NCBI GenBank assembly: GCA_964538765.1
Contig: CAZIHS010000004.1
Coordinates: 1 to 45,634 of the forward strand
Length of the DNA stretch: 45,634 nucleotides
Direction of reading: 5' to 3'
DNA from: an uncultured Gammaproteobacteria bacterium
GTDB lineage: Bacteria > Patescibacteriota > Microgenomatia > UBA12405
This document shows positions 971 through 41,000 of the stretch, in pieces. The notes under the pieces were generated by a model. It was not told the origin of the DNA, did no database searches, and saw only the letters and a program-made list of their open reading frames with translations. A program made the position numbers and the translations under genes. The first letter of the stretch is position 1. The number at the start of each line of letters is the position of its first letter.

Positions 971-1300
971 CAGTGGGGTCGGGACACTAGTGTTGATTCT
1001 GTCATTGCCGGCCAACCGCTGATAGTTTTCAATGGTCAGCCTGCCTTCAGTGGTGACGACGATCCCAAAAAGTCATCCGTTGGACATCGCTCATTTATTG
1101 GCGCTTCCGACTCCACCGTCTACATCGGCATTGTTCATTCTGTCTCAATTGCCCAAATGTCACAGGTTTTGGCAAAAATGGGCCTAAAAAATGCCATTAA
1201 CCTCGACAGTGGGGGTTCAACCGCGCTTTGGTACAACGGCAAATTCCTTGCCGGCCCCGGCCGCGACACTCCGTTTGGCATCCTATTCGTCAAACGATAG
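971..1300 (+). pseudogene. Headless 3' fragment of a phosphodiester glycosidase (NAGPA/DUF2233-like) gene
   Basis: Manual translation: QWGRDTSVDSVIAGQPLIVFNG...RSFIG...MGLKNAINLDSGGSTALWYNGKFLAGPGRDTPFGILFVKR*. NLDSGGS matches the family NLDGGGS motif. No ATG/GTG/TTG in frame between the upstream TGA (851-853) and the internal Met at 1157. Confidence 0.75.
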
Positions 1301-2464
1301 ATTTCTCCCTTTCGGTGCTAATGACAAACTGTTGATAATATTGTCCTCACCCTCATACCCCAGCGCCCAAAACCCCACCCCGGCCAGTTCGGTTTGTCGG
1401 GCCAGGGCCACTTTAACCCCAATGCTTTTTGAGTTCTCGAAATACGCCGAATAAAGTTTTCCTCGCTTTTTATATACTACCCAAGGTGTCATTGATTCTT
1501 CATCAAAATTTTCCCTAAACTCACCTTCGCCAAGCACCCCGTCTGCGTCAACCGCTAGCCCCTCTTCTTTAATCAACCTTTTAGCCCGGTTAAAACTCAC
1601 CATCTCTCCCCCGCCTCCAACTACCAAAGACCCAAAACCATCGTCTTCCACCCTCCACACATAGCCATACAAAGGCAATGCTAAAATAATCTTCTTTTTG
1701 TCCAATTTTTCTTCAACCACCCGTTCTACAACTTCGATCAAACTTCGGCTTCCGGCCACCGATCTCAATGGAGCCACCGGCCCAGAGTTATTTGACCCCG
1801 GCCGATGAAAATCGTAAGCCATCACTATAAACCTGTCTACCACCGAAATAAATTTCGCCAAGTCCTCGCCGTCCCCTTTGATCATTGTATTAGCAAAGAC
1901 ATCAATTCCAACTTCAACTCCGGTTCCTTTTTTAAGCTCACCCAAAAAATCCAGCATTGATCGCGACAATATTTTTGTCGGGCTCCCTTGATACTCAAAA
2001 TCAACATTAATACCATCAAACCTGCCACCACCAACAAGATTCCTCACTTCCTCCACCAATTTGGCTCTTGCCATCTCCGAAGCTAAAAACTTGTCAATAT
2101 CATTATCTTTAAACAGTTTCAGCCCCACTGCCACTTTTCCGCCGCTATTTTTTACCTCATTTTTTTGTTTTTCAAAATCGGTTCCAAATATTTTTTTCGA
2201 TTGACTATCCCAAATCAGCCCCCCGTCTTTTCCCACTTCTATACCCAAAAACACCAATTCGCTCAACTCATTGCCATAAATCTTCGTTTTCCCTACCATC
2301 CAGGTTGGCAAAAAACCAACAACTTCCATCTTTCTGCTGTTTTCAAGGTTAAACAATTTACTAGACAATGGCGTCAACAAATCCCCTCCAGCCCTCCCAC
2401 TCCAAAATAACCACCCCCCAACTCCCAACAAAATCAGTATTATCAACCCAAACAATCTATTCAC
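1283..2464 (-). CDS. Glycoside hydrolase family 18 protein with N-terminal membrane anchor
   Basis: FDGINVDFEY catalytic motif, VMAYDFH, LALPLYGY, GVGFWALG; hydrophobic N-terminus. Confidence 0.9.
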   Translation of the reverse strand: MNRLFGLIILILLGVGGWLFWSGRAGGDLLTPLSSKLFNLENSRKMEVVGFLPTWMVGKTKIYGNELSELVFLGIEVGKDGGLIWDSQSKKIFGTDFEKQKNEVKNSGGKVAVGLKLFKDNDIDKFLASEMARAKLVEEVRNLVGGGRFDGINVDFEYQGSPTKILSRSMLDFLGELKKGTGVEVGIDVFANTMIKGDGEDLAKFISVVDRFIVMAYDFHRPGSNNSGPVAPLRSVAGSRSLIEVVERVVEEKLDKKKIILALPLYGYVWRVEDDGFGSLVVGGGGEMVSFNRAKRLIKEEGLAVDADGVLGEGEFRENFDEESMTPWVVYKKRGKLYSAYFENSKSIGVKVALARQTELAGVGFWALGYEGEDNIINSLSLAPKGRNLSFDE

Positions 2465-2581
2465 TCAAATATTTTATCCCACAAAACCTCTTAAAATTCC
2501 CCCAAGTCCCAAAAACCAAATAAAACCCAACCGTAAGAACCAAAAACTTTTTCACAATTTTTCCTTTCTTCATTGTTTTTG

Positions 2582-2655
2582 TGGGCAATAGTGGACTCGA
2601 ACCACTGACCTCTGTCTTATCAGGACAGCGCTCTAACCAACTGAGCTAATCGCCC
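2582..2655 (-). tRNA. tRNA-Ile(GAT), CCA not encoded
   Basis: Reverse complement GGGCGATTAGCTCAGTTGGTTAGAGCG-CTGTC-CTGATAA-GACAG-AGGTCAGTGGTTCGAGTCCACT-ATTGCCCA: full cloverleaf, anticodon GAT, TTCGA T-loop. Confidence 0.97.
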
Positions 2656-2702: not shown

Positions 2703-3848
2703 CTATTTACAGGCACTAGCACAGTCAGAGCTCGTCACCGGAATACACCTTGCCCCGGTATACCGACCGTCCAATCCCCAACAGGACTTACACCGATACC
2801 CGGTCTGACAGCTAACAAACCCATCAACATCACACCTTGAACAGGCCGTAGTCCATGGCGGCCTTGTCGGCCTCACCGTCACCGACGGCATTGGTGTTGT
2901 CGAACCAGAAAAACAACTTCCTCCGCTAGCAAACGCCTGCTCACAAGTCTGCCCCAAAGGTACGCATTTAGCCCCGGCGTACGTCGAACCCGACCAGCAA
3001 CTTTTACACCAGTAACCGCTTACGCATCCCGAAGATCCAGGAACATCGCATCTCTCACAGGCCAATGCCCTCACCCCCGATGCTGTTGGAGTTAATGTTG
3101 GCAAAACAACTCCAGTTGCGGTTGGATATGTTGCCGTTGGCGTTGATGTTGGTACTGCCGCTGTTGGCGTTGCCGTCGGCACCACCACAGTTGGTGTTGC
3201 TGTCGGAACACCTCCATAAGTTGGAGTCGGTGTCGGGGGCACCGAAGAAGGCGCCGGCGTTGAAGTTGGCGCTGGTCCACCACCCGACACCAAATACACA
3301 ATCCCCGCCGAAGCCAGTTGAATTGACGGATCAGCTCCAGTAGTCGACGCCACCCCCATGCTGTCAGTAGTGTTCAACGACACCATCGCGCTTCCACCAT
3401 TAATCGCCTTAAACTTAACTTTTCCTAAATTAACCACCCCTGTCGGCAAATCTGTTTCAGGTAAACTGTTTGGAACCGCACCCGACAACATCAGCTTCCC
3501 CTCGGCATTAATAAATGTATTTGCGAATATGTCCCCGCTGCTCCTAAAAATAAAGCTGGAGCTATTCCCATAATCAGGAGTAACTTCCAAAACCTGAACC
3601 TTGTCTTTATCAAAGTTTACCCTAACGTCAATTGCCACTAGTTTTTTATCTCCCACATCAACTTTTAAATCCATTAAAACTTCCTGGTTTACAGTCAAGT
3701 TTGTGACCGAAGAATTCATTATTACCGTTCCTGTTGAAAAGAATGCGCCCCTTCTGGTTTCTTGGTTTTTCCTCACCAGCACCAATCCTGCCGCCAGCGC
3801 CCCAAACAGCACCAAAACAAAAAGAACCCTTCCCATCTTCTTTAACAT
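2703..3848 (-). CDS. Membrane-anchored cohesin-domain protein with Pro/Thr linker and two Cys-rich C-terminal modules
   Basis: N-terminal TM + QETRRGA; cohesin-like beta-sandwich (AIDVRVNFDKDKVQVLEV, LGKVKFKA); PTATPT linker; duplicated CxxCDVxGxxxCxxGYxCKSCW module. Confidence 0.75.
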   Translation of the reverse strand: MLKKMGRVLFVLVLFGALAAGLVLVRKNQETRRGAFFSTGTVIMNSSVTNLTVNQEVLMDLKVDVGDKKLVAIDVRVNFDKDKVQVLEVTPDYGNSSSFIFRSSGDIFANTFINAEGKLMLSGAVPNSLPETDLPTGVVNLGKVKFKAINGGSAMVSLNTTDSMGVASTTGADPSIQLASAGIVYLVSGGGPAPTSTPAPSSVPPTPTPTYGGVPTATPTVVVPTATPTAAVPTSTPTATYPTATGVVLPTLTPTASGVRALACERCDVPGSSGCVSGYWCKSCWSGSTYAGAKCVPLGQTCEQAFASGGSCFSGSTTPMPSVTVRPTRPPWTTACSRCDVDGFVSCQTGYRCKSCWGLDGRYTGARCIPVTSSDCASACK

Positions 3849-3893
3849 TTTCTAAATATTCTATTAATCAATAATTAAATATTAGCATTATTT

Positions 3894-6800
3894 TTAATTT
3901 GCAGGAGTTTCTGATATAAAGCCTATCTTCAGTTGACCCCCTTTAGGAAACAAAACCACAAACCTTCCGTCGTTCTGATTGGTGTATATAATCCTCACCC
4001 CGTCTCCCCCCAAGGTTAGGCCCATATTCGCCTCAGACATTCCTCCAATCAATTTCCTTTCCAGGTTTTGATTAAACGCCGCCACCCTGGCATCGTAACT
4101 AAAGTTTGCATTTCTTTGATTCCACACCACCAAACAATTGTCAGAATTTGCCTTTTTACTACACCCTATATCAGGTACCGGATATTGCCCAGAAGATGCC
4201 ACCGTCACCGTCTGACCCCCAACCCTGGAAAGCATTACTCTCGCGCTACTCTCGGCATAACCTGGAGTCGGTACACTATTTCCGGTAAAATCTTGAAAAG
4301 TCACATAAAACGCCTGGGAAACATTGTTGTAGTCAGTGTTTGGTTTTTCAGAGGCATTTGCGCTCGCCGTTCCATCCCCATATAGCTTCACATTACTACC
4401 TACAAAATTAAGATTAGTTCCGTCAACCAGTTGGTACCAGATGTCAAACCGATCATGAGCGTGAGCATATGGTTGTGGAAGTACATTTTCCCTGTCGTCG
4501 CTCCACACCGACAATACTTTCCCGTCACCAAAAGCCAGGTCTGAATATTGCTGCATTCTGGCCACCGGATCACCCGCCACCATTCTCGTCATCAAAACAT
4601 TGCCGCCACTCAAGCTTCCGTCCATGTTCACCGCCTGACCAAATATTTCTTTTTCAGTATCAAACGGCCTTCCCATCCCCGACCGGTATCGGTGATCGTG
4701 CCAGGTGATAAAGTATTTGTTCGATGTCGGCACATATTGCACCATCGGCACCCATTGACAATCCGGCTGGCTCGGATCAGAAACCGCAATCTCCTGTCCC
4801 AAAAGCACTCCATCTTCCGATACTCTCCTGGCCAAAACATCATAACACCTTGCTTGAAATTGGCTCGAATCCGGCACTCTTTGCCAGGCCACCAAAAACT
4901 CCTTTGAGGACGGACTATAGCTAACATAAGGGTGCTGCTCATCTGTTGCCGTTGCACTAATTACAAAAGGGTCAGTAAGTTGGTTTCCTGCCCCATCAAC
5001 AATTTGTCCATAAACATTGTAGTTCGCGTTTGCCCCATACACCACTGCCGGGTCACCCGCGTTTTCAATCCAGCTTACTAAAAATTTCGGTGTTGCCAGG
5101 TTATCCCCAAATGCAAAATGCGGTTCACCTTTGTCTCTCGAGCCATAAACCAAGTTCTTAATTGTCGGCGATCCAATATTATATGCTCCTGCTGCCACTG
5201 GCGGCAACGTCACTGATGGTAGTGGCGATATTGTTGGAGTCACCGTCGATCCCCCAAGATAAGCCGTTCTAAACATTGAATAATCCAATATATCCACCCT
5301 CCCATTACAACTAAAATCAGATCGGGTTGCATTTTGGTTGTGCAAATAGTCGTCTCTCCACCATCCAAAGTCAACCAAATTCACCACCCCATCACAGTTT
5401 GCATCACCCGGCCTTCTCAAAACTCCCCCCTGGCAATATCCACACTGTCCACCACCGCTTCCAGCAGTCGGTGTTGCAGTCGGCGTTGGACTCGAAACAT
5501 TTCCCTCCGCCGCTTCCACCCAAACCATATGAAAAAAATCATCCCCAACGCCACTTTCAATTTCAATATTCGGCCCATGCCAGCCAACCACCGTGCTTGG
5601 CTCAACTTCTCCACTCAAATCAACATCACCAAGGTCCATCGTCTCCATCAACACCGCGTTAACTCCACCCCCGGCCACCCCCGGCCGCGTCCCTTTGGTC
5701 ACCACCCTGCTACCTACCCCTCCCCCCGCCTTCGAATACTTTACTGTAAAACTATCAGTCCCCTTGTTAAGAAAAAAGATTCTCAATTTCAACCCGTTCC
5801 CTCCAAACTTACCCTGATTCACCAGTCTTTGGTCAGCCAGTAATTTCATCCTTTGGCCTGCCGCCAATTTTCTCATCTGCCTGGTATACATCTGCCCGCT
5901 ATCTGCCACCAAGCCAGATGGATATACCATTTCCCCGCTATCCCACCTCACCACACTAGTTGCTTCAGGGTTTAAAAGTCTTAGATACTTTTCAAAATTA
6001 CCGCTAAGTTTGGCACTAAATCCCTTGCTTCTGTCAGCCACGTCACAATTGGGCAATCCCGGGTTCACATTACACCCAACTTCGGCATACGCCGGCAAAC
6101 CCTGTTCCAAACCATGTCCATAAAGATTTCCCTGGCCAAAAGGACCTTCCCTCCTTGTCACTGTCGAACCGTCAGATCGAAGCTCGCTGTCTCTAAACAC
6201 CACCCAGGCATGTTTTGCATCTCTCGGGCTAACTCCTAAATTTTCCTGATACCACTTCCAAAAGCCCAAACCACCTGTCGTCCCCAAATCGGGCCAAGGC
6301 GCGAAACCATCCATCCCCACTTTAACCAAAGGCGCCACTCCCCCTCCAAGGTCAACTTGTCCACTGCTGTTTACTGGTAAAATCCAATCATCCTGAAAGT
6401 CAGCAAAAGTGATGTTCGCTCTCAACGAGGCCAAAAAAGACCAATAGGCAAACTCTATTCTTTTTTTTTCGTCGCCACTTCTTCCTGCCAAATCTAAAGT
6501 TGTCTCCATTGCGGTTTTCGCCAAAGCCGTCATGTTAAACATGTCACTCACCGAATCCATCACCTGTATTTGCCCTCCTCTTAGTTTTAAGTTATTGTTG
6601 GTAACCGATATTGCCGAAGAATAACCCGAATTTTCGGGTTGCATCCCGTTATGTTTAAATCCAATCGCTGGAGACAGCGTCAAACTATAATCCCGCCACT
6701 GGGCAACAGTTTTGGTATCTCCATTTGCCGAATGCTGTAAAAATATGTCCTTTTGCGGAAATGCCTGCCTCCACACCTCCATTTGATATCTCACCCATTC

Positions 6801-7445
6801 CTTATATATACCTAAATTTTGCCATGTACCCCAAACACTGGCCGCATTACACCCTCGCCAATCTTTTGTTGCCGCCGCTTCATCGTCAACTCCAGAAGCC
6901 AAAGCAATGCCTGACAACCGCGGATCATCCTTAAGAGAAATGCTCTGGCCCCGATACACTGTCTGGTAGTTTGAAATAGCCCTCACCTTATCGGCATATC
7001 TGGCTTTAAAATTTGCGTCTCCATACTTTGGTATTTTAATCTTTCCGCAAGAGGCACTAATTAATTCCACATCATCAGCCCTGACATACGTCTTATACTG
7101 TTCATTAACCGGACCGGGCAAAACAGGATTAATTAAATACAACTGAAGTGTCATATAAAAAGGTTTGTCAACCATCTGACCATCAAAGTTCCTCACCTTT
7201 CTCCCCGCCTCAATTTTGTTTTTCACTGCTTGTTCAGTAAACACCTCATTTGAACCAGTCTCATCATACCAAGGTATCATAATATGTCCTCCAATCGGGC
7301 CAACTTTTGGATACAACGCCCCAAAATCTCTATTTGAATAATCGTCCCTAGAATAAATCATTGGCACCATCTCTGCCAATACCACACCACCTGCCATCAG
7401 CCAAAACACTCCACCCAGCACCAGCAAGCGAATCAACCTATTCAT
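3894..7445 (-). CDS. Large secreted protein: putative glycoside-hydrolase-like N-terminal domain, dockerin type I, C-terminal beta-repeat domain
   Basis: Signal peptide (VVLA-E); dockerin repeats GDANCDGVVNLVDF and SDFSCNGRVDILDY; P/T linkers; repeated hydrophobic-xxW strands (FLVSW, FLVAW, YFITW, VLSVW, CLVVW). The GH call rests on weak motif resemblance (KDDPRLSGIALASGVDDE; WRQAFP). Confidence 0.7.
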   Translation of the reverse strand: MNRLIRLLVLGGVFWLMAGGVVLAEMVPMIYSRDDYSNRDFGALYPKVGPIGGHIMIPWYDETGSNEVFTEQAVKNKIEAGRKVRNFDGQMVDKPFYMTLQLYLINPVLPGPVNEQYKTYVRADDVELISASCGKIKIPKYGDANFKARYADKVRAISNYQTVYRGQSISLKDDPRLSGIALASGVDDEAAATKDWRGCNAASVWGTWQNLGIYKEWVRYQMEVWRQAFPQKDIFLQHSANGDTKTVAQWRDYSLTLSPAIGFKHNGMQPENSGYSSAISVTNNNLKLRGGQIQVMDSVSDMFNMTALAKTAMETTLDLAGRSGDEKKRIEFAYWSFLASLRANITFADFQDDWILPVNSSGQVDLGGGVAPLVKVGMDGFAPWPDLGTTGGLGFWKWYQENLGVSPRDAKHAWVVFRDSELRSDGSTVTRREGPFGQGNLYGHGLEQGLPAYAEVGCNVNPGLPNCDVADRSKGFSAKLSGNFEKYLRLLNPEATSVVRWDSGEMVYPSGLVADSGQMYTRQMRKLAAGQRMKLLADQRLVNQGKFGGNGLKLRIFFLNKGTDSFTVKYSKAGGGVGSRVVTKGTRPGVAGGGVNAVLMETMDLGDVDLSGEVEPSTVVGWHGPNIEIESGVGDDFFHMVWVEAAEGNVSSPTPTATPTAGSGGGQCGYCQGGVLRRPGDANCDGVVNLVDFGWWRDDYLHNQNATRSDFSCNGRVDILDYSMFRTAYLGGSTVTPTISPLPSVTLPPVAAGAYNIGSPTIKNLVYGSRDKGEPHFAFGDNLATPKFLVSWIENAGDPAVVYGANANYNVYGQIVDGAGNQLTDPFVISATATDEQHPYVSYSPSSKEFLVAWQRVPDSSQFQARCYDVLARRVSEDGVLLGQEIAVSDPSQPDCQWVPMVQYVPTSNKYFITWHDHRYRSGMGRPFDTEKEIFGQAVNMDGSLSGGNVLMTRMVAGDPVARMQQYSDLAFGDGKVLSVWSDDRENVLPQPYAHAHDRFDIWYQLVDGTNLNFVGSNVKLYGDGTASANASEKPNTDYNNVSQAFYVTFQDFTGNSVPTPGYAESSARVMLSRVGGQTVTVASSGQYPVPDIGCSKKANSDNCLVVWNQRNANFSYDARVAAFNQNLERKLIGGMSEANMGLTLGGDGVRIIYTNQNDGRFVVLFPKGGQLKIGFISETPAN

Positions 7446-7447
7446 GC

Positions 7448-8668
7448 CTAATACAACTGATCTTGTTTTTCCTGAAGCGCTACCATTAAATTAGCAACAT
7501 CAAGACTGTTAACCAAGCAGTTGCCATCCAAATCAGCCTTCAAATCACCTCCCACCTCAGCCTGTTCCCTCAACAAAGCTTTCGCCTTCACATAAGCAAA
7601 ATCCACCCCATCCACCACTCCATCCTGTTCACCCGAATCTCTTCCAACAACATCTCCAGGCACCAAAGGATACCCACTAAAATCAACTGTTTGGTCAGCC
7701 AAAATTGTTATTTGCCCTCCTGGCCGATTATAAAAAGCAGTTTGTCCATCAACCGCATACTTAGTTTGGGCATGTTTTGGCCCCTTAATCAAAATTGCCA
7801 ACCCCTCTCTCTCTGAAATACCATCCAAATTCACCACCCCCAAATACTTCCTCAATCCACCCCCGTTTTCCACCAAAGCTAATCCAACATTCTCATAACT
7901 TCTCATTTGAGTTGGGCCAACAACCGTCACTTTCACCGGCCAGTTAACGGCACAACTTGAATCAGGCCCAACATCCTCAAAAGCCATCTTAAATTTCAAT
8001 AAATTAGCCGCCCCACCCGGCCCTGCCGTCGGGGTTGGAGTTGGCGAAGGCGTCAAAGTTGCTGTTGGTGTAGGTGTCGCCGTCGCTGTCACTTCAGGCG
8101 TAGGAGTATCCGTCGCTGCCGCTCCACTCCCAACCTGATAAACACCCCAACCCAGAGTTCCCCATTCCAACGTCTCCGGAGTCCCTTGACTGCTTATACC
8201 CCTCAACATATAAACGTAAGACCCATCAACCCCCAGCCTTGCCTCTCCCTGAGCCAGCGCCTCCAGTTCAATTCTAAATAAACTCGCCACCCCAGTCACC
8301 CCTCTAGTATCCCCTTCCCCTAAAGTCGCCTCCAGCACAATTTTCCCGGTCGCCTGATCAACTCTTTTCTGGATCACATCTCCAACTAACGGTTCTTTTG
8401 TCACTGAGTTAACTTTTAATCTGCTGTTATCAAAAACCAGCCCTATCTCCATCGCGCTCAAATACCGTTCTCTGACGTCCACTTTCACCACCACCGTCCA
8501 TGTCTCGCCCACTGCCACCGTCTTAGTATCCGGTAGAACCAGAAAATCAACCAGACCGTTAGCCGCCCCTCTTCTCGTTTCTTGTCTTCGGGAAACCAAC
8601 ACCAAGCTGGCCACCAGTGCCACCCCAACCAATCCCCACCACAACCACTTCAACTTATCTCTCAACAT
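7448..8668 (-). CDS. Membrane-anchored cohesin + dockerin protein
   Basis: N-terminal TM + QETRRGA; cohesin-like segment (SAMEIGLVFDNSRLKV, LFRIELEAL); TPT linker; C-terminal dockerin GDV...QDGVVDGVDF / ADLDGNCLVNSLDV. Confidence 0.8.
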   Translation of the reverse strand: MLRDKLKWLWWGLVGVALVASLVLVSRRQETRRGAANGLVDFLVLPDTKTVAVGETWTVVVKVDVRERYLSAMEIGLVFDNSRLKVNSVTKEPLVGDVIQKRVDQATGKIVLEATLGEGDTRGVTGVASLFRIELEALAQGEARLGVDGSYVYMLRGISSQGTPETLEWGTLGWGVYQVGSGAAATDTPTPEVTATATPTPTATLTPSPTPTPTAGPGGAANLLKFKMAFEDVGPDSSCAVNWPVKVTVVGPTQMRSYENVGLALVENGGGLRKYLGVVNLDGISEREGLAILIKGPKHAQTKYAVDGQTAFYNRPGGQITILADQTVDFSGYPLVPGDVVGRDSGEQDGVVDGVDFAYVKAKALLREQAEVGGDLKADLDGNCLVNSLDVANLMVALQEKQDQLY

Positions 8669-8677
8669 TAATTAAAT

Positions 8678-9607
8678 TTAGCACACTTTTTCTTTTTGCA
8701 ATAGCATCGAAACCACCTCTCGCGCCACATTAATTCCCGTCGCTTGCTCAAACCCCCTAAACTGGCACTGGCGATTAACTTCCAAGACATAGTTATTGCC
8801 TCTTTCGTCTTTCATAATATCCACCCCTGCATAATCAAGTCCACCGGCTTCTGCCACCGTTTCAGCCAGCCCTTTTTCCACATCGCTAAGTTCCCACCCC
8901 TCCACCTTTCCCCCTAAACTAAAATTACTTCTAAACTCTTTTCCCACTGCCGTTCTCTTCATTGCTCCAACTGCCCTTCCTCCAATCACTATCACCCTCA
9001 AATCCCAACCAAGCGGCAAATATCTTTGCCACAAAAACATCCCCAAATTTTTTTCATTTATTTTCTCCAGCCACCCCAGGGCTTCTTTTAAGTTAGACAG
9101 CTTTCGCACACTCTTTCCCTGATACCCCCTCTCATGTTTCACCACTAAAGGAAATTCCCACTTCTTGTCCAATCCGACCTGCCCAATTAAAAAGTTCCTC
9201 ACCACTTCCTTTTGGTAAAAAATTCTAGTCGGAACAACTTCTATTCCAGCCCCCTCAAACACCCCATGCTGACTAATTTTTCCCATCCTCGGCCAACCCA
9301 GATAACTTTTTCCATTAATGCACACCACCTCGTCCCTCAACAGTCTAATCAAAAGGTTTCTCCCTTCAACATACTTTCCGCTTTTGGTTCCTGCCACCCT
9401 AAACCAGCAACCCAAAGTATTGTCACCATTTATTTCCTCCCCGGCCACCAGCACCCTGCATCTACCACCACCAATTTCAAACTCAATCTCTCGGTACAGT
9501 GCCTTTTTTACCCCAACCCCCAGCCTCTCGGCCTCCTCAACCAATCTGTTAACCTCAAACTGGCTTTGCAAAAGCGACATTGTAAAAGTAATTATTCGTT
9601 TTTTCAT
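8678..9607 (-). CDS. RimK-family ATP-grasp ligase
   Basis: DLRVIVIGG, FRSNFSLGG, AGVDIM, VLEVN motifs. Confidence 0.88.
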   Translation of the reverse strand: MKKRIITFTMSLLQSQFEVNRLVEEAERLGVGVKKALYREIEFEIGGGRCRVLVAGEEINGDNTLGCWFRVAGTKSGKYVEGRNLLIRLLRDEVVCINGKSYLGWPRMGKISQHGVFEGAGIEVVPTRIFYQKEVVRNFLIGQVGLDKKWEFPLVVKHERGYQGKSVRKLSNLKEALGWLEKINEKNLGMFLWQRYLPLGWDLRVIVIGGRAVGAMKRTAVGKEFRSNFSLGGKVEGWELSDVEKGLAETVAEAGGLDYAGVDIMKDERGNNYVLEVNRQCQFRGFEQATGINVAREVVSMLLQKEKVC

Positions 9608-9608
9608 A

Positions 9609-10601
9609 CTATCCGGCCTCCCCCAGTAAATTTTTTAAAAACAACACTATTTCGGCCGGGACATCAATTCCGGTTGCCTCCATAAACCCTTTAAATTGTG
9701 GCCCCTTATTTACTTCCAAAACCACATAATCATCCAAATTTACATTCGTATCATTTTTATCTATCATCCCGCTCAAATTATTTTTGACCATAATATCCAC
9801 CCCCGCCACCTGCAAACCGCACACCCCGGCCGCTCTCACTGCCAGCTCTTTCACCTTTTTTGGTAAGTCAGCCACCTCAACCTTTCCTCCCGCCGAAAAA
9901 TTATTTCTAAATTCTTTCTCATCTTGCCTGCTTCTCCTCATCACCCCCAAAACCTTCTTCCCCAACACCAGCACTCTATAATCCCCATCGTTTTCAATCC
10001 ACTCCTGCAACAAATATCTTTTTCCCTCTTCAGTTTCACTCTTCCTAAGTTGCCAAACCAGCCTTTCCAGGTCTTCCAAATTTTCTGCCCTGTAAACCCT
10101 TGTCCCCCTGTCCCCCCCGCTTCCTTTCAATATCACCGGAAATGAAAAGCCTAAACCCAAATAGTTATTTTTGACCAGTTCATATAAATACCACAAGCTC
10201 CCATACACTGTTTTTGGCACCGCTATTCCCGCCCGGCTCAAAGCCGTCATTTGCCAGGCCTTGCATGCATAACTCGGCTTCCCCAGTCTCACCATTGAAT
10301 CAACCACCACCGTTCCCTTATCTATACTATTTATAATAAGATCAACTTCCTCCCAATGTTTTCCGGTTGTCCGAAAAAACAGCACTCCATATTCATCCAA
10401 CCCCTTTTTTTCAGCCATTTTCGCTCTGCTTCCCCTAATCCACACCTTTGACTCACCGCCATCTTCAGTCGAAAAAACCACTCTGTTGTACGAAATCAAA
10501 TCCAGCTCCACCCCAATTCTTCTGGCCGCCGCCTTAATAAGACCCAAATGTTTGGTCACTTTTCCCCCAAAAAATAACCCAATTCTCCTGTTTTTTGCCA
10601 T
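9609..10601 (-). CDS. RimK-family ATP-grasp ligase
   Basis: GIAVPKT, DYRVLVLG, FRNNFSAGG, AGVDIM, VLEVNKGPQF motifs. Confidence 0.88.
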   Translation of the reverse strand: MAKNRRIGLFFGGKVTKHLGLIKAAARRIGVELDLISYNRVVFSTEDGGESKVWIRGSRAKMAEKKGLDEYGVLFFRTTGKHWEEVDLIINSIDKGTVVVDSMVRLGKPSYACKAWQMTALSRAGIAVPKTVYGSLWYLYELVKNNYLGLGFSFPVILKGSGGDRGTRVYRAENLEDLERLVWQLRKSETEEGKRYLLQEWIENDGDYRVLVLGKKVLGVMRRSRQDEKEFRNNFSAGGKVEVADLPKKVKELAVRAAGVCGLQVAGVDIMVKNNLSGMIDKNDTNVNLDDYVVLEVNKGPQFKGFMEATGIDVPAEIVLFLKNLLGEAG

Positions 10602-11989
10602 TACTTTTTATATATTTTTGTAACCTCAACCTTTTTGGTCGACACCAGAAAACCTTCCAGATCTTTTCTTCCCAGCAAAAACTTTGTTCTCAGCTTCGAT
10701 CTGTCGGCCACATTAACCGCCGTCACCACCTTTCTATTTTTCAACCAAAAAGCCACTCCCACCACCGGCCTGTCATGATGTCTCCCTAAAGACGACCGGT
10801 AATGCCGGTAATACAGCACCTTGCTTTCTTCAAGCAAACCCAGTTTTCCCGCCAGCACCCTGTCAATCGAGCTTCTAAACGCTCCAGTATCCAATTTTGC
10901 CCTCACCTCAACCACCCTGTGTTTGCCCCTTTTCCTCACCACACTTTTTTGCAAATCCGGCTTAAACCCCTTTGCTATCTTTATTTCAATAGTTTCCAAC
11001 GGACCAACCGTTTTTGGACCATCCTTTTCTTCAACTTTTTCAAAAAATCTCTCTCCAAAAAGATATTTTGACAACGACAGGGCGTGGGCCACACTTCTCA
11101 CTTCAACATCCTCCACTTTCTCCATCCTCTGCTTCAGCCCCGCCTTATTACACAGTTGTATCGACAATCCCGGCCTCACGTTCAGTTCCAGCACCACCGG
11201 TCCTTTGTCCTTATCTAGAACCACGTCAACTCCCACAAACCCCATCCCCGCCACTGCCATCTGGCTCTTAACCGCTGTTTCCAAAATCTCACGCCACATT
11301 GGTATTTTTATCCCGTTAACTTTTATTTTTCTCTTGTTTTTCCGGGAAATAATACTGGTTACCACCTCTCCCTTTCCCACCACCCCAAAAGTTGTAATCC
11401 CTGTCGCCAGGTCAATCCCCAATCCATAGGCTCCTTGCTGCAAATTAGCCTTTCCTCCACTTATCTCCGTTGGAATCCTAAACATCGCCATCACCGGCAC
11501 TCGGTTATACATTACCACCCTGATATCTGGAGTTCCCCACCTCGTCAGCGCCAGAAATTTTGGGTGTATCTTCACCCTTTCTTCCACCAGCACACTATCC
11601 ACCATCCCGTGCAAACTATATTTGCCACCCAATATATCCCAACAATGTTTTTTAACTGCCTCTTCAGTCACCACCTTTCCGTCAATTTTCAGCCACCCAC
11701 CTCCCACCAGTCTCTTTCTAATAATTAATATCCCCTCGCCTCCAAATCCCGACACTGGCTTAACCACAAAATTTCCCTCCAGCCTATTCCACCCAAAATC
11801 ATCAACCTCTTCGGCATTTTTAAACCTGGCGATTAATTTAGGAACCCCAACTCCCTTCTTTTGCAAAATCCTTTTAGTCCTGTACTTACTATCGGCAATC
11901 TCTCTTGCTTCCGAGGAATTCTTTCTCAAATACACCTTGTTCCTCTCGTTTTTCGTCAAAAATTGCCTATATTTTTTTAGGCCCCACAT
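10601..11989 (-). CDS. Sugar-transfer-associated (alpha-L-glutamate ligase-like) ATP-grasp fused to a C-terminal RimB-type aspartyl protease
   Basis: FVVKPVSGFGGEGI, DIRV, ANLQQGA, GVDVV, VLELNVRPGLSIQ; C-terminal AKLDTGA...RPVV...DRSKLRTKFLLGRKDL protease motif. Confidence 0.85.
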   Translation of the reverse strand: MWGLKKYRQFLTKNERNKVYLRKNSSEAREIADSKYRTKRILQKKGVGVPKLIARFKNAEEVDDFGWNRLEGNFVVKPVSGFGGEGILIIRKRLVGGGWLKIDGKVVTEEAVKKHCWDILGGKYSLHGMVDSVLVEERVKIHPKFLALTRWGTPDIRVVMYNRVPVMAMFRIPTEISGGKANLQQGAYGLGIDLATGITTFGVVGKGEVVTSIISRKNKRKIKVNGIKIPMWREILETAVKSQMAVAGMGFVGVDVVLDKDKGPVVLELNVRPGLSIQLCNKAGLKQRMEKVEDVEVRSVAHALSLSKYLFGERFFEKVEEKDGPKTVGPLETIEIKIAKGFKPDLQKSVVRKRGKHRVVEVRAKLDTGAFRSSIDRVLAGKLGLLEESKVLYYRHYRSSLGRHHDRPVVGVAFWLKNRKVVTAVNVADRSKLRTKFLLGRKDLEGFLVSTKKVEVTKIYKK

Positions 11990-12848
11990 GTTTTTCTTTC
12001 TCCCTAATCGCTTTTCTAAATCTTTTTATCTCCAACAATCTTATCCCGGTATAATTTCCAATCAAAAAATTAATTACTATCACCAGACCCAGCACTATTT
12101 CGGGATAAACCAGCACCATCTGCTGTAACCACCGCCAGCTCATCAATCCCGCCCCTGCTACCGCTAAAAGCAAGGTTCCCACTGTCAATCTTTGAGCTTC
12201 ATTTTGGCTCTTAATCAGCTGTGTTTTTACAAACTCTTCAGCCAAAAGCACCATAAACATAACCGGAAATATAGATATTCTAGTCAAGTCAAATTGCTTC
12301 ACACTGCTCGACAACACAATAATCCCAAAAGCCGCCACCGATATCACCGACAATCCAATCGCTCTCGATGGCCAAAAGTGCAACTTCCACCTTCTCAAAC
12401 CAAACCCGGTTACCAGCGATACTATTAATATAGTTCCAAAAAGCAACAGCCCCCCGGCAATTCCGGTGTTTAGCAAAACCACTGCCACCATTGTCGGCAT
12501 AAACACCCCATAGCCAGACAGTCCCAGCAAATAATGAACCGCCGAGGTCAGTGTCGCCACCACCGGCAACAACAGCAGTAACACTACCGTTTCCGCCGCC
12601 AAACCCCTTTCCACCGCCAGTTTAATCAGCCACTGCAAACTGTTTGTCCCTCTCCAGCCGCCAATATTTCGATTCTTCACCACTTCATCTAAACCATAGT
12701 CCGTTTTTGTTTCGTTCCCCATTTCATTATCTGCCTTTGCCACCAACCCAACTGGTTCCACTCCCTCCACCCAGTTCACCTCACCGCTTCTAACCAGCCC
12801 CGCCAAAACCACCACCAGGAAAAATATTAATAATGATTTTTTAAGCAT
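11967..12848 (-). CDS. 7TM protein of the family usually fused to inactive transglutaminase, here without that domain
   Basis: LLLLLPVVATL, GYGVFMP, ISIFPVMFMVLLAEEF, YTGIRLLEIKRF; about seven hydrophobic segments; adjacent to the ATP-grasp partner typical of this family. Confidence 0.82.
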   Translation of the reverse strand: MLKKSLLIFFLVVVLAGLVRSGEVNWVEGVEPVGLVAKADNEMGNETKTDYGLDEVVKNRNIGGWRGTNSLQWLIKLAVERGLAAETVVLLLLLPVVATLTSAVHYLLGLSGYGVFMPTMVAVVLLNTGIAGGLLLFGTILIVSLVTGFGLRRWKLHFWPSRAIGLSVISVAAFGIIVLSSSVKQFDLTRISIFPVMFMVLLAEEFVKTQLIKSQNEAQRLTVGTLLLAVAGAGLMSWRWLQQMVLVYPEIVLGLVIVINFLIGNYTGIRLLEIKRFRKAIREKEKHVGPKKI

Positions 12849-12993
12849 CTGTTTGGATAATTTATTCTCTCAAGTCTAATTTGTGGCGTATTATAACCCC
12901 GCCCCCCTTCTCATTCAACAGTCTAATATCATCGTTGCCTTTCGTCAATTTCCTCTTTCTCTCCTTTTCTTCCCATATTGTATAATTCATTTA

Positions 12994-13326
12994 ATGTCAA
13001 TCCCACTTTTGGCCCAAGTTGATATAAAAAATACTCCACTTGGTGCCGGTTCAATTGGCACTATCTACTCCACCCCCGCCACTCTCATCAATCTCATTGT
13101 CAAAAATTCCCTCACCATTGCTGGCATCCTTCTTCTTGTTCTTTTGCTTTTTGGCGGCCTAAATTATATAATCGGCGCAGGCAAGAATGACCCAAAAAAG
13201 ACCCAACAATCTCAAGAAACCATCACCGCCGCTCTCATCGGCTTTGCCGTCGTTTTCCTTGCCTTCATCATTGTCCAAATTATCGAAATCATTACTGGCG
13301 TTCAAATTCTTTCCCCAAACATCTAA
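12994..13326 (+). CDS. VirB2/TrbC-like pilin 1 (start revised to ATG 12994)
   Basis: Two TM helices around the GGLNYIIGAG...ITAALIGFAVV pattern; TATAAT at 12981-12986. Confidence 0.8.
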   Translation: MSIPLLAQVDIKNTPLGAGSIGTIYSTPATLINLIVKNSLTIAGILLLVLLLFGGLNYIIGAGKNDPKKTQQSQETITAALIGFAVVFLAFIIVQIIEIITGVQILSPNI

Positions 13327-13330
13327 ACCA

Positions 13331-13705
13331 ATGAATCCAAAACTCTCATCCCGCAATTTTCCCATTGTTTTTGCAGGTATTTTCGGCAACATCAACCCGC
13401 CTCCCGGTGTCGACAAATACGTCTCTAAAGGTGGCAATCCCGGTGGCGGCCTTTTCCTTTTTATCAGTAATCTATTTTTTCTGGCCGGTGTCATCGCCGG
13501 CGTCTATGCTGTTTTCCAGTTTATTTCCGCAGGTTACGGCTACCTCAGCGCCGCCGGTGACCCCAAAAAAGTTGAAGCTGCCTGGGCCCAAATTTGGCAA
13601 AGCGCCCTTGGCCTGGTAATTATTGCCTCTGCCTTCGTTCTCGCCGGAGTAGTTGAAAAACTCACCGGGCTTAGTATTCTTTCACCTGTCATCTATGGTC
13701 CCTAA
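13331..13705 (+). CDS. VirB2/TrbC-like pilin 2 (start revised to ATG 13331)
   Basis: AGYGYLSAAGDPKKVEAAWAQIWQSALGLVII. Confidence 0.82.
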   Translation: MNPKLSSRNFPIVFAGIFGNINPPPGVDKYVSKGGNPGGGLFLFISNLFFLAGVIAGVYAVFQFISAGYGYLSAAGDPKKVEAAWAQIWQSALGLVIIASAFVLAGVVEKLTGLSILSPVIYGP

Positions 13706-14054
13706 TCTCCTGGCCCAGGTTACCTACAAAATCACCGGTCCCGGTCTGCAACCCGTCAACTCCAACGATGCCGTCTCAAAAATGGAAAAAGTTTTAAGCA
13801 ACGTCTTTGGTTTTCTCACTATTATTGCCATAGTTTATTTCGCCATTCAAATAATCCTTTCCGGTCTGGCCTTCATCAGTTCCCAGGGTGACGCCAAAAA
13901 CATGGAAAACGCCAGAAAAAGGCTCACCGAAAACGTCATCGGCCTCTTTATTGTCATCATCGCTCTCGGCCTGGCGTCCCTTTTTGCTTCCCTCACTGGT
14001 CTTGGCGACAACATATTCGATCTAAATGAGGTTATTAAAAAAATCGGTGTCTAA
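13695..14054 (+). CDS. VirB2/TrbC-like pilin 3 (start revised to ATG 13695)
   Basis: SGLAFISSQGDAKNMENARKRLTENVIGLFIV; overlaps the pilin 2 stop. Confidence 0.82.
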   Translation: MVPNLLAQVTYKITGPGLQPVNSNDAVSKMEKVLSNVFGFLTIIAIVYFAIQIILSGLAFISSQGDAKNMENARKRLTENVIGLFIVIIALGLASLFASLTGLGDNIFDLNEVIKKIGV

Positions 14055-14055
14055 C

Positions 14056-14442
14056 ATGATCAAAACGCTTTTAACTTCTACCCTTTTCATCCTCTTTTCT
14101 CCGCGTTCCAGTCTAGCCATAATCTGCAATCCTCTCATCAAAAACTGTCAAAACATTGTCACCGACCCAAAGGCCTACACCAACTCCGTAATCCAAACCA
14201 TGTTTTCCCTGTTTTTTGTAGTCGGCTTCATCTATTTTATTTGGCACTTTGTCATGGGCGCTTACCACTTCATGGTCACCGAAGGCGATCCGAAACGCTA
14301 CGAAACCGCTAAAAACGAAATCACCTGGTCGCTTCTTGGCGTCGTTGTCCTTTTTTCCGTCTTTGCCGTCCTAAAACTAATTGGCTACATTCTTGGTATC
14401 GAAGGCCTCGACCACTTAACCATTACACTACCCTCCCTTTAA
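14056..14442 (+). CDS. VirB2/TrbC-like pilin 4 (start revised to ATG 14056)
   Basis: Signal peptide (SSLA-I), Cys pair, GAYHFMVTEGDPKRYETAKNEITWSLLGVVV. Confidence 0.82.
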   Translation: MIKTLLTSTLFILFSPRSSLAIICNPLIKNCQNIVTDPKAYTNSVIQTMFSLFFVVGFIYFIWHFVMGAYHFMVTEGDPKRYETAKNEITWSLLGVVVLFSVFAVLKLIGYILGIEGLDHLTITLPSL

Positions 14443-14457
14443 CTTTCTTATCTTTAC

Positions 14458-14466
14458 TGATAAAAT
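14458..14466 (+). promoter_or_regulatory. Extended -10 upstream of pilin 5
   Basis: TGaTAAAAT in the 62-bp gap, 38 nt before the ATG at 14505. Confidence 0.5.
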
Positions 14467-14504
14467 TAGGCAATAGTTAAAAATTAATCGAAACATACCA
14501 AAAA

Positions 14505-14882
14505 ATGATCCAAAAACTAGTCCGCAAAATTAAAATGGCCGCTCTCGTTGCTCCGATTATGGCCCAAGACATCACCTTTGGCAGTAAAGTTGACAACTTC
14601 AAACCTCTCGAAGATCTTAAAGCCGAAAGCATTATCCAGGGCGCCATCTCTCTTGTTCTGGTGGTCGTCGCTCTGGTCTTCTTTTTCATGCTCGTTCTCG
14701 GTGGTTTAAAGTGGGTTATGTCTGAAGGCGATGAAAAAAGCGTCACCGCCGCCCGCAACCAAATCACCAACGCCCTCATCGGTCTTGCCATTGTCTTTTC
14801 CGCTTGGGCCATCATGCGCCTGATTGGCATTGTCTTTGGTGTCAACATTCTCGGTGGTATCAAAATTCCCACCCTCCAGTAA
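14505..14882 (+). CDS. VirB2/TrbC-like pilin 5 (candidate major pilin)
   Basis: Leader ending IMA-Q; GGLKWVMSEGDEKSVTAARNQITNALIGLAIV. Confidence 0.85.
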   Translation: MIQKLVRKIKMAALVAPIMAQDITFGSKVDNFKPLEDLKAESIIQGAISLVLVVVALVFFFMLVLGGLKWVMSEGDEKSVTAARNQITNALIGLAIVFSAWAIMRLIGIVFGVNILGGIKIPTLQ

Positions 14883-14899
14883 ACTTTCTTTGTCTTTTG

Positions 14900-14929
14900 A
14901 AAAGGGCAGGGTTCATCCCTGCCCTTTTT
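14900..14929 (+). terminator. Intrinsic (probably bidirectional) terminator after pilin 5
   Basis: AAAA-GGGCAGGG-TTCAT-CCCTGCCC-TTTTT: perfect 8-bp GC stem flanked by A and T tracts. Confidence 0.88.
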
Positions 14930-14937
14930 GTTATAAT
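14929..14937 (+). promoter_or_regulatory. Extended -10 for pilin 6 (leaderless-type)
   Basis: TGtTATAAT, 5 nt before the ATG at 14943. Confidence 0.65.
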
Positions 14938-14942
14938 TGTTT

Positions 14943-15368
14943 ATGAAATTCCTCCCTCAAAGATCCAACCTTTCCCCCAAAAGCCTTATTCTTTTTTTGA
15001 TCGCTCTCTTTTTTCCTGTTCCTGTTTTTGCCCAGCCTCAACCCTGGAACGCCAATCCAAATCTAAAATGTGTTGATCCCGCCAACCCCGACGTTCCCTA
15101 TATTAAAGGTCTCGAATGTCTTTTTTACAACGTACTTCAGGTTATTGTCGTCATCGCCGGCCTGGCTTTTTTTGCCATGTTTGTCACCGGCGGCTTTCAA
15201 TATCTTCTTTCTGGTGGCGACCAAAAAAAAGCCGCCGCCGCCGCCTCCACCCTCACCTCTTCCGTTATCGGCCTGGTTGGTATTATCGGCTCCTACCTCA
15301 TCCTTGTCCTCATTCAACACTTCACCGGCATCACCAGTCTCACCAAGTTCACTATTCCTGGTCCCTAA
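14943..15368 (+). CDS. VirB2/TrbC-like pilin 6 (start revised to ATG 14943)
   Basis: Signal peptide (VFA-Q), Cys pair, GGFQYLLSGGDQKKAAAAASTLTSSVIGLVGI. Confidence 0.82.
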   Translation: MKFLPQRSNLSPKSLILFLIALFFPVPVFAQPQPWNANPNLKCVDPANPDVPYIKGLECLFYNVLQVIVVIAGLAFFAMFVTGGFQYLLSGGDQKKAAAAASTLTSSVIGLVGIIGSYLILVLIQHFTGITSLTKFTIPGP

Positions 15369-15369
15369 A

Positions 15370-17688: not shown

Positions 17689-17711
17689 TCTGTGTTAAAA
17701 TTATGCCAATC

Positions 17712-29809: not shown

Positions 29810-29828
29810 AGTCGCTATTTTAGCACGT

Positions 29829-32834: not shown

Positions 32835-33112
32835 TCCATCCCTCGTTGTCCCTTCCTCTTATTCACCACCAGTCATCGCTTTTTCCCCCGAATCTAACCC
32901 CAACCCCAGGCCACTTTATAAGCCACTACCACCCTGTCTCCTGGTTCCGTCACCACCTTTTCCCTTTTATCCACCTCTTCTCACCCTCTGTTTCCTGCCA
33001 ACTTTCCGTTTTTACAGTTCTTCATTTCACTTCTCCACCGATCCTAATACTCACTACTACTAATTTATTAAACATTCATTAATTACTAATTAATTATTTG
33101 TTATCATTACGA
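32835..33112. other. Candidate oriC (dnaA-dnaN intergenic)
   Basis: 278-bp gap; degenerate boxes TTATTCACC (32859), TTATCCACC (32967), TTCTCCACC (33031); then CTA-rich trio-like run 33044-33062 and an AT-rich tract up to dnaN. Confidence 0.5.
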
Positions 33113-38525: not shown

Positions 38526-38569
38526 ATTATTATACCAACCGGCTTTTTTCTACTGCCCCACCGTCACCT

Positions 38570-40999: not shown

Positions 41000-41000
41000 A

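Follow-up and report, generated by a model that had tools for sequence, protein, structure and literature searches.

The DNA stretch considered here, called the window throughout, is the complete contig CAZIHS010000004.1 (45,634 nt) of a Microgenomates bacterium of the candidate phyla radiation (CPR), and the subject of this study is a run of seven minus-strand genes which, in the open reading frame (ORF) listing, occupies positions 12848 to 2703. The run splits into two units. Unit 1, a ligase module (12848 to 8678), consists of the genes of a seven-transmembrane (7TM) protein (11967-12848, 293 aa), of a protein in which an ATP-grasp ligase is fused to a retropepsin-type protease (10601-11989, 462 aa), and of two RimK-family ligases, RimK1 (9609-10601, 330 aa) and RimK2 (8678-9607, 309 aa). 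Unit 2, a cohesin-dockerin cassette (8668 to 2703), comprises the genes of a cohesin-dockerin adaptor (7448-8668, 406 aa), a dockerin-bearing cargo protein (3894-7445, 1183 aa) and an anchor cohesin (2703-3848, 381 aa). The 7TM and fusion genes overlap by 23 nt (11967-11989), the fusion and RimK1 genes share 1 nt in a TAATG at 10601, and gaps of 1, 9, 2 and 45 nt follow the genes of RimK1, RimK2, the adaptor and the cargo, respectively. The initial annotation had described seven co-oriented genes with these spacings, and its coordinates, overlaps and gaps were identical to those of the ORF listing.

The junction between RimK2 and the first cohesin gene is not an assembly artefact, since an independent Logan contig of 12,185 bp from the source run covers positions 5950-13000 with zero differences. 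The DNA runs that contain the stretch are sludge metagenomes, and no RNA run was found to contain it. Gaps of less than 50 nt and co-orientation are the norm across this compact window, where the genes of FtsH and its neighbour, Wzy, Jag and YidC are equally tight, so that spacing alone says little. Tight spacing in such compact genomes is no evidence of a shared pathway.

The ligase module and its relatives

The 293-aa protein matches the Pfam family 7TM_transglut (PF14402, E 9e-22) over residues 87-279 only, and its alignment to the NCBIfam model of RloB covers model positions 312-506 of 508, at 45 bits compared to a cut-off of 900. An N-terminal hydrophobic segment is followed by a short external stretch of about 60 aa and then by the 7TM bundle, without a transglutaminase-like domain. 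The lack of this domain had been noticed at the outset and was borne out, the RloB match being confined to the membrane half. All related loci that are complete have the 7TM gene upstream of that of the fusion.

The fusion protein matches TIGR02291 (NCBIfam, 'alpha-L-glutamate ligase-like') at E 6.5e-74 and 248.8 bits, below the curated cut-off of 314.2, and ATPgrasp_ST (Pfam, PF14397) at E 2.3e-57 and 194.8 bits, compared to a cut-off of 31.4. On these scores it is classed as a member of the RloC-type family and not as an equivalog. The ATP-grasp ligase domain spans aa 10-298 (11096..11962, minus strand) and its ATP-grasp motifs are invariant in alignment A1. The retropepsin domain (about aa 355-455; 10625..10927, minus strand) carries D367-T-G-A and L438-L-G-R-K-D; the motifs DTGA and LLGRKDL, the two hallmark retropepsin motifs, are invariant in an alignment of 16 sequences. 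The C-terminus matches PF05618 with 26.9 bits, compared to a cut-off of 27, and most homologues have a PF05618 match on record. The AlphaFold2 model of the fusion, built from the same number of aligned sequences, was too poor for a fold search, and sequence profiles were compared with the PDB instead. The best PDB match of profile A6, made from the C-terminal domain, was 9G59 (E 6.3e-6), and 9G58 was matched as well, both motifs being aligned; both entries are RloA crystal structures from Lormand et al. The profile further matched 2PMA and, weakly, the Rickettsia retropepsin ApRick. The fusion of an aspartyl protease to the ligase, as read from the sequence initially, is thus confirmed as a PF05618-type domain at the C-terminus of an ATP-grasp protein. 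Residues 340-462 are strongly basic (32 K+R compared to 11 D+E), which fits the positively charged polyglutamate channel published for RloA and RimB. The protease is of the cytoplasmic RimB type, lacks a signal peptide, and is fused rather than encoded by a separate gene.

Both RimK paralogues match PF08443, RimK1 with E 5e-26 and 91.9 bits and RimK2 with E 8e-29 and 101.1 bits (cut-off 21). Their scores are 127.5 and 128.9 bits, respectively, with TIGR00768 (cut-off 143.4), and 56.7 and 66.2 bits with the S6-ligase equivalog model (cut-off 331). The best PDB match of both is E. coli RimK (5ZCT/4IWX), with E 8e-13 for RimK1 and E 8e-15 for RimK2, followed by LysX and ArgX. The nucleotide loops, earlier described as non-canonical, are real and conserved: KGSGGDRGTRV occurs in 59 orthologues of RimK1 and KHERGYQGKSV in 50 of RimK2, and both odd loops retain the K and the G-x-x-G core. 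Conservation in the same two sets reaches 100 % for the R-S/N-N motif and for the D/E/N Mg ligands. As the loops are strictly conserved within each orthologue group and the catalytic residues are intact, we regard them as lineage signatures under selection and not as signs of decay. RimK2 is absent from a derived clade with a single RimK, and one RimK has been lost in several lineages.

At E<=1e-10 there are 2,287 homologues of the fusion protein, the best 120 being 67-75 % identical to it. Where source names were given, nearly all homologues came from Shapirobacteria, Woesebacteria, Microgenomates or Patescibacteria. Across relatives the fusion is 65-75 % identical, compared to 66-73 % for FtsH, and no related locus of sufficient length departs from the order 7TM, fusion, RimK(s). 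Unit 1 is a core, vertically inherited operon of Microgenomates of the Shapirobacteria/Woesebacteria type. The record titles of L006, L009, L014, L015 and other related loci read 'uncultured Gammaproteobacteria', and one reads 'Candidatus Methanoperedens', despite a typical Microgenomates locus; these records are probably mislabelled or mis-binned.

The closest described system is RloABC of Pseudomonas aeruginosa, which consists of a secreted retropepsin (RloA), a 7TM protein whose transglutaminase domain is inactive (RloB) and a cytoplasmic ATP-grasp protein (RloC) (Lormand et al. 2025, mBio, PMC12239564). Mutants lacking the protease are relieved of their defects when RloB or RloC is lost, RloA cuts runs of eight or more glutamates, and a positively charged polyglutamate channel has been described for it (PMC12239564). 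In that paper 96 % of the RloB hits were from Proteobacteria, and neither fused forms nor CPR bacteria were mentioned (PMC12239564). As in RloABC, an ATP-grasp protein of the RloC type, a 7TM protein of the RloB family and a PF05618 retropepsin are encoded together in the window. Unlike in RloABC, the 7TM protein has no inactive transglutaminase domain and is 293 aa long compared to 508, two additional RimK-family ligases are present in the operon, and the host belongs to the Microgenomates. The retropepsin differs as well: RloA is secreted, whereas the protease of the window has no signal peptide and forms the C-terminal part of a cytoplasmic ligase, and it cannot, for these two reasons, act extracellularly as RloA does.

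RimK and RimB are the cytoplasmic counterpart of the Rlo proteins and act on ribosomal protein S6. With the RimK/RimB(/RimA) systems (Pseudomonas; E. coli RimK; PDB 4IWX, 5ZCT and 7QYR) the module shares the conserved K, G-x-x-G, R-S/N-N and D/E/N Mg ligands, and a cytoplasmic retropepsin encoded alongside, with a basic substrate face suiting acidic tails. It differs from them in having two paralogues with lineage-specific loops that score far below the S6-ligase equivalog model, a protease fused to a ligase of the RloC type and a membrane partner, and neither RimA nor rpsF is encoded nearby. The absence of rpsF, pointed out in the initial annotation, holds for the whole 45.6-kb contig, which also contains no ORF with an acidic tail.

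The view of the ligase block as a variant of the RloABC and RimK/RimB systems of Pseudomonas is supported. The module is a hybrid of the two, with a RloB-like 7TM protein, a RloC-like ligase, a fused RimB-like protease and two RimK-like ligases. An architecture with a ligase-protease fusion, no transglutaminase domain and two RimKs was not found in the searchable literature. Iyer and co-workers reportedly made the original prediction of ATP-grasp/7TM/aspartyl-protease systems in 2009. The Klebsiella fimbrial-modification system CfmP was considered as a parallel and set aside as not relevant, its ATP-grasp protein being TupA-like.

One explanation of Unit 1 is classical ribosome modification, in which the RimKs would glutamylate S6 or another cytoplasmic protein, the retropepsin would act as RimB does, and the 7TM and RloC parts would regulate or localise the activity. 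For both paralogues the closest relatives of solved structure are genuine RimK enzymes, the protease resembles RimB in being cytoplasmic and differs in this from the secreted RloA, and the module is conserved like a housekeeping gene, as the comparison with FtsH indicates. Against this, the S6-ligase equivalog scores of both paralogues are low, the protease is fused to a ligase of the RloC type instead of a RimK, the module has a 7TM partner of its own in strict linkage, and rpsF is missing from the contig. We consider the explanation quite unlikely.

It is also conceivable, albeit improbable, that the ligases build a short peptide or an amino-acid-decorated component of the envelope rather than polyglutamate, with the 7TM protein exporting the product and the protease releasing it. 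Three different ATP-grasp ligases in one operon would suit stepwise assembly, Pfam names PF14397 'sugar-transfer associated', and the strictly conserved, lineage-specific nucleotide loops suggest diverged specificities. There are envelope-related neighbours, namely a pilin array, a glycoside hydrolase (GH) family 18 gene and, further off, the genes of Wzy and a Polysacc_synt protein. However, the conserved module includes no glycosyltransferase or carrier gene, its protease domain is basic, as reported for the polyglutamate-cleaving RloA, and one RimK is dispensable in several lineages.

In the mechanism that we favour for Unit 1, the three cytoplasmic ligases would add alpha-linked acidic residues, most likely glutamate, to an acceptor, or to one another's product, at the membrane. 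The retropepsin, tethered and very basic, would form dimers as other retropepsins do and could then trim or release the acidic chain, and the 7TM partner may dock the product or pass it on.

The cohesin-dockerin cassette

The domains of the cassette proteins were defined with local hidden Markov models (HMMs) built from the domains of the window and iterated over the ORFs of 84 related loci, which yielded cohesin, 'Mid' and dockerin domains. They replaced a word-indexed homologue search with the 406-aa protein, which had returned 2 proteins, probably because words from the Pro/Thr linker dominated. In the 406-aa adaptor Pfam found a cohesin (E 4e-4) and a dockerin (E 8e-4), each just under the cut-off on the full-length protein; the cohesin (PF00963) scored 21 bits in the full protein and 23.9 bits as an excised domain, compared to a cut-off of 24.1. 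The protein starts with a transmembrane (TM) helix and a QETRRGA motif, continues with the cohesin, a Pro/Thr linker and the beta-rich Mid domain (KGPKHxQxKY), and has a C-terminal dockerin ending in ...EKQDQLY. The local profiles place the cohesin at residues 32-156, Mid at 223-340 and the dockerin at 337-402. The same adaptor architecture was found in twelve relatives.

At the level of the family the matches were clear. PF00963 was matched by 22 of the 25 cohesin domains (best E 5e-10) and PF00404 by 21 of the 24 dockerins; profile A2 matched cohesins in the PDB with E 6.6e-6 and profile A3 matched dockerins with E 4.5e-15. Both Ca-binding repeats of the dockerin are visible in the 406-aa and the 1183-aa proteins. 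These results uphold the earlier description of the downstream genes as coding for cohesin and dockerin proteins.

The 381-aa anchor protein had no Pfam match, and its cohesin (residues 32-166 by the local profile) was found only via the family profile. It lacks a dockerin and runs from a TM helix with QETRRGA via the cohesin and a Pro/Thr linker to two repeats, which are rich in Cys and each about 40 aa long. The C-terminal ~125 aa (2703-3100, minus strand) contain these repeats, which read C-x-R-C-D-V-x-G-x3-C-x2-G-Y-x-C-K-S-C-W ... C-[VI]-P. They matched no family, and the 84 loci contain no relatives of them. The N-terminal signature shared by adaptors and anchors across related loci, a TM helix followed by K/R-N-Q-E-T-R-R-G-A, matches no library family. 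The QETRRGA-type motif is found only in cohesin proteins (18 of the 18 ORFs carrying it), and could serve as a dedicated signal for sorting or processing.

The 1183-aa cargo protein consists of a signal peptide, an N-domain (about aa 25-650), a dockerin (675-730) and a C-terminal domain of 440 aa. Its dockerin is weak in Pfam (E 0.037) and clear against the local profile, and no other significant Pfam match was obtained with this protein, nor any Pfam GH match. A homologue search with the N-domain gave one close relative, P0123, and an exhaustive search among representative sequences gave 57 proteins at E<=0.001, the query and P0123 included. When ten remote homologues were scanned, four had a CBM96 match and two a weak GH42 match over the homologous region, and the 13 best PDB matches of profile A5, built from the N-domain family, were all clan GH-A TIM barrels (GH35/GH42/GH10; E 0.0017-0.11). 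These matches weakly suggest a TIM barrel like those of GH-A. Of the domain assignments made initially nearly all were confirmed by Pfam, NCBIfam or local profiles, and the 'GH-like' nature of the cargo received weak backing from the GH-A matches. The N-domain and the C-domain are both unique to the window among the 84 loci. The C-terminal ~440 aa (3894-5213, minus strand) contain recurring segments with W, D and G, possibly a beta-propeller; no relatives of this domain were found in Pfam, among PDB sequences or in the 84 loci. A phage origin of the cassette and 7TM proteins was also considered and dropped, the PHROGs scan having given linker-type matches only.

The dockerins are of two types: the cargo type has DFxxW[RK], and the adaptor type has DFxYVK and ends in ...KQxQLY. 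Two dockerin subtypes together with two cohesins suggest a tiered assembly in the order anchor, adaptor, cargo, in which the pairing of dockerins with cohesins is likewise a prediction. The cassette would form an assembly at the cell surface from two membrane-anchored proteins, a cohesin and a cohesin-Mid-dockerin adaptor, and a secreted dockerin cargo. Unit 2 appears to be a self-contained surface-assembly cassette.

Like the cellulosomes of Acetivibrio thermocellus and Ruminococcus flavefaciens, the cassette has cohesins, dockerins with duplicated Ca-binding repeats, a layout of anchor, adaptor and cargo, and Pro/Thr-rich linkers. Unlike in cellulosomes, each protein of the window has a single cohesin (two in some relatives), and there is neither a carbohydrate-binding module (CBM) of the CBM3 type nor a multi-enzyme scaffoldin. 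The anchor is an N-terminal TM helix with QETRRGA and not an SLH or sortase type, while the cargo is diverse, with SLH repeats (in one relative), a BNR propeller or Cys-rich modules in relatives and the weakly GH-A-like barrel in the window. With one cohesin per protein and a cargo that is no recognised cellulase, the term 'cellulosome-like' used initially is limited to the principle of assembly, where it is justified; strict cellulosome criteria (several cohesins, a CBM, a cellulase) do not apply. A closer parallel is offered by the NagJ complexes of Clostridium perfringens (PDB 2OZN, 2JH2), in which cohesin-dockerin pairs serve general surface or extracellular assembly in a non-cellulolytic organism, and NagJ cohesins were among the PDB matches of the cohesin profile. 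In contrast to NagJ, the cassettes are compact, paralogous and relocatable, occur in an ultra-small CPR genome, and have the 3' end of the ligase operon as one of two preferred sites. A survey by Peer and co-workers from 2009 is said to cover such non-cellulosomal cohesin-dockerin modules.

The variable slot and a second cassette site

One genome per species was scanned, which gave 166 loci encoding the fusion, and 80 of them were fetched. The slot was taken to reach from the last RimK gene to a conserved tRNA-Ile(GAU) (2581..2655, minus strand, in the window), its downstream boundary, and was scored in the 46 loci in which both a RimK gene and the tRNA were present. A cohesin-dockerin cassette of 1-5 genes filled it in 17 of the 46, and in 16 it was empty (3-136 nt). 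In seven it held an Sm_multidrug_ex membrane protein, alone or together with a B12-radical SAM enzyme, in five other genes (NUDIX, VTT/DedA, unknowns), and in one an ambiguous small protein. Five more contigs terminate within a cassette, bringing the cassette loci to 22. In all 22 the first cassette gene starts 1-40 nt after the stop codon of RimK2, on the same strand, whatever the type of gene. The Sm_multidrug_ex proteins (151-156 aa, 63-95 % identity) directly follow RimK in L040, L049, L060, L066, L078, L030 and L064, and two of these loci additionally carry a B12-binding radical SAM/DUF4070 enzyme. These 151-156-aa ORFs had been suspected to be hidden cohesins, which was rejected when they proved to be Sm_multidrug_ex membrane proteins.

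In a tree of the fusion protein, the cassettes were found in deep branches and in the large clade that contains the window, and were absent from one two-RimK clade and from all single-RimK lineages. The simplest reading is an old linkage followed by clade-wide losses and replacements, which is tentative, as the neighbour-joining tree is based on a single gene and rooted at the midpoint.

In a reciprocal test, 73 metagenome loci were fetched with the Mid-dockerin part of the adaptor. Where close relatives had 5 kb or more of sequence upstream, only two distinct places lay behind RimK genes and seven did not. Five of the seven shared a second conserved site, among housekeeping genes, with the order rpsB-tsf-frr-rseP / GH39 / cassette / yqeY-dnaX-cysS, without an ATP-grasp gene (L085, L088, L102, L113 and L127, at about 7-12.5 kb in each locus). 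The five-gene cassette of this site consists of a dockerin cargo, a cohesin-Mid-dockerin protein, a 175-210-aa protein, a cohesin, and a further cohesin or dockerin. Copies from both sites are intermixed in the Mid-dockerin tree, so that the cassette behaves as a relocatable, paralogous unit.

The physical join of ligase and cohesin genes is therefore real, recurrent and probably old, and it is not obligatory, being found in roughly a third to half of the relatives. Recurrent linkage, which the initial annotation had named as a point to check, stands in so far as the tight join occurs in 22 loci over deep branches. As a general property of the module it does not hold in this gene-neighbourhood survey, in which the slot lacked a cassette in 28 of the 46 loci, being empty or occupied by unrelated genes, and the single-RimK clade had no cassette at all.

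Under functional coupling, the view taken from the sequence initially, the ligase module would make, export or trim a peptide or poly-amino-acid by which the scaffold is decorated or served, or the ligases would modify the scaffold proteins, and both blocks would belong to a single pathway. A cohesin or dockerin gene does lie 1-40 nt behind RimK2 on the same strand in deep as well as shallow branches, and cassettes accompany two-RimK modules only and never occur in the single-RimK clade. The cohesin-Mid-dockerin proteins moreover share the extreme C-terminus ...KQ(D/E)QLY, and enzymes of the RimK type act on protein C-termini. However, this C-terminus is part of the dockerin fold, the scaffold proteins are exported while the three ligases and the protease have no signal peptides, and no protein of the window, as judged from its ORFs, has an acidic C-terminal tail like that of RpsF. 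Twelve of the 28 slots without a cassette hold unrelated genes, and the same type of cassette is also found elsewhere, at a site remote from all ATP-grasp genes, its copies there intermixed with those behind RimK2. The idea that the ligase system decorates or serves the scaffold is not supported by these observations, and it is weakened because the blocks are unlinked in most relatives, an outcome that the annotation itself had named as speaking against it; we consider such coupling distinctly unlikely. There is a slim chance that it exists in the two-RimK lineages only, where an acidic peptide could be needed for, or could tune, the Ca-dependent cohesin-dockerin assembly. Routes to this, no more probable, would be modification of the ...KQ(D/E)QLY tail before export or an anionic envelope peptide exported via the 7TM protein. 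If true, this would be the first case of a surface scaffold that needs peptide ligation by ATP-grasp enzymes, and the organism is one whose presumed way of life is attachment to other cells.

Transcription signals at the locus were examined as well. The best promoter-like site of the region, TTGAAT-17-TATAAT (12890..12918, minus strand; 10 of 12 matches), lies 42 nt upstream of the 7TM start codon and is a candidate operon promoter, to be taken as a lead only, as the scan overall found 24 such sites compared to 16.5 +/- 4.4 in shuffled sequence, i.e. not above shuffles. No terminator-like hairpin was detected at the RimK2-cohesin junction, in a scan that was likewise not above shuffled expectation. 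The junction reads ...TGC TAA atttaatta ATG TTG..., and the 9-nt gap leaves no room for a promoter. The cassette is probably read through from the promoter of Unit 1, co-transcription being suggested by the spacing only.

It is possible, but unlikely, that the arrangement is a matter of packing alone, with a cassette promoter inside the 3' end of RimK2 and an adjacency that reflects compaction at a tRNA-flanked hot spot, without co-expression. Gaps below 50 nt are normal between unrelated genes of the window, a promoter-like match exists within the 3' end of RimK2 (8843-8814), and other lineages have unrelated genes in the slot and, in one locus (L001), a serine recombinase beside the tRNA. 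Yet that promoter match is weak and comes from a scan that did not exceed shuffles, the first cassette gene stays within 40 nt of RimK2 in all 22 loci regardless of its type, and the junction has no terminator-like hairpin.

The reading that we hold to be probably correct combines a conserved ligase operon with a dispensable cassette, the two being co-expressed by read-through and the cassette being independent of the ligases. The cassette would occupy a variable accessory slot, would be transcribed from the promoter of Unit 1 and would not depend on the ligases for its function. The adjacency most likely provides co-expression and not a shared biochemical pathway.

Several points weigh against this reading. 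The scores of the ligases with TIGR02291 and TIGR00768 are below the curated cut-offs of NCBI, and the enzymes may thus have diverged in substrate. Glutamate as the added residue is deduced from RimK, RimB and RloA only, the steps from ligation to cassette assembly are derived by homology, and the AlphaFold2 model of the fusion, with a mean pLDDT of 44, was unusable. A gap of less than 40 nt kept over deep divergence could reflect selection for coupling. The cassettes were found beside two-RimK modules only, in 22 loci compared to 0 of the 11 confirmed single-RimK loci, which could hint at a dependence of the cassette on RimK2, and which we read as coincidental co-loss. The weak promoter-like match in RimK2 means that the cassette could also be transcribed independently.

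Surroundings of the module and wider significance

The conserved order of the region is a divergent VirB2-like pilin array / 7TM, fusion, RimK1, RimK2 / slot / tRNA-Ile(GAU) / GH18 / tRNA-Ala(UGC). Of the 47 relatives scanned, 46 have the tRNA-Ile downstream of the module, 44 of them on the strand of the module, and it always lies beyond the cassette where one is present. Beyond the tRNA, outside the cassette, a GH18 family protein (1283..2464, minus strand) matches PF00704 (E 4.5e-27), and its gene is a conserved downstream neighbour in 38 related loci. The sequence tRNA-Ile(GAU), GH18, tRNA-Ala(UGC) is found 3' of the ligase module in nearly all relatives. A pair of tRNA-Ile and tRNA-Ala is typical of the spacers of rRNA operons; here the pair is split by the GH18 gene and rRNA genes are absent.

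In L001, the closest relative, a serine recombinase (13925-15667, 578 aa, Resolvase/Recombinase) abuts the far side of the tRNA-Ile with an annotated overlap and is followed by unknown genes and then GH18. It looks like a tRNA-integrated mobile element separate from the cohesin slot. That the cassettes themselves are mobile elements inserted at the tRNA was rejected, as they are situated within the operon, on the 5' side of the tRNA.

Upstream of the ligase module and in divergent orientation, at 12883-19235 (plus strand), there is an array of small VirB2/T4SS_pilin-like genes together with genes of an 872-aa and a 540-aa protein, conserved in relatives. A second type IV secretion cluster, with a VirB4/TraG-like ATPase, a protein with an M23 peptidase and a PrgI-family protein, lies at 35961-42680 (minus strand) near dnaA. 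Both the pilin array and the type IV secretion cluster have been described for Patescibacteria (bioRxiv 10.1101/2025.01.22.634366).

The plus strand of the window (1-45634) contains 14,173 C and 6,665 G, a GC skew of -0.36, and all related loci are alike in this respect. At third codon positions minus-strand genes have a skew of about +0.6 and plus-strand genes one of -0.5 to -0.65; as its sign flips with the strand of the gene, the skew follows the DNA strand and not transcription. The genes dnaA (449 aa) and dnaN (378 aa) are at 31485-34234 (plus strand), beside yidC and jag (29339-30614, minus strand). A replication origin is expected near dnaA and dnaN, yet the sign of the GC skew does not change there. 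A 'nucleotide composition disparity' has been reported for the Microgenomates order UBA1400, with unidirectional replication as the proposed explanation (PMC7143001), and the skew of the window matches it.

The Rlo system was described only in 2025, and RloB was reported to be almost confined to Proteobacteria. The module extends the Rlo/Rim family into CPR bacteria. Across a large CPR lineage its stripped-down version of the Rlo system is conserved to about the same degree as FtsH, which suggests that the chemistry at its core is old and matters even to minimal cells. In the ligase-protease fusion there is direct genetic evidence for the synthesis and the trimming of the product belonging together. 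The fusion, being small and soluble, is an attractive protein for finding what ligases of the RloC type make. The cassettes are new members of the known class of non-cellulosomal cohesin-dockerin systems. They show that ultra-small bacteria carry compact, relocatable three-part kits for surface display with an N-terminal anchor motif of their own, and they bear on how CPR cells attach to hosts or substrates.

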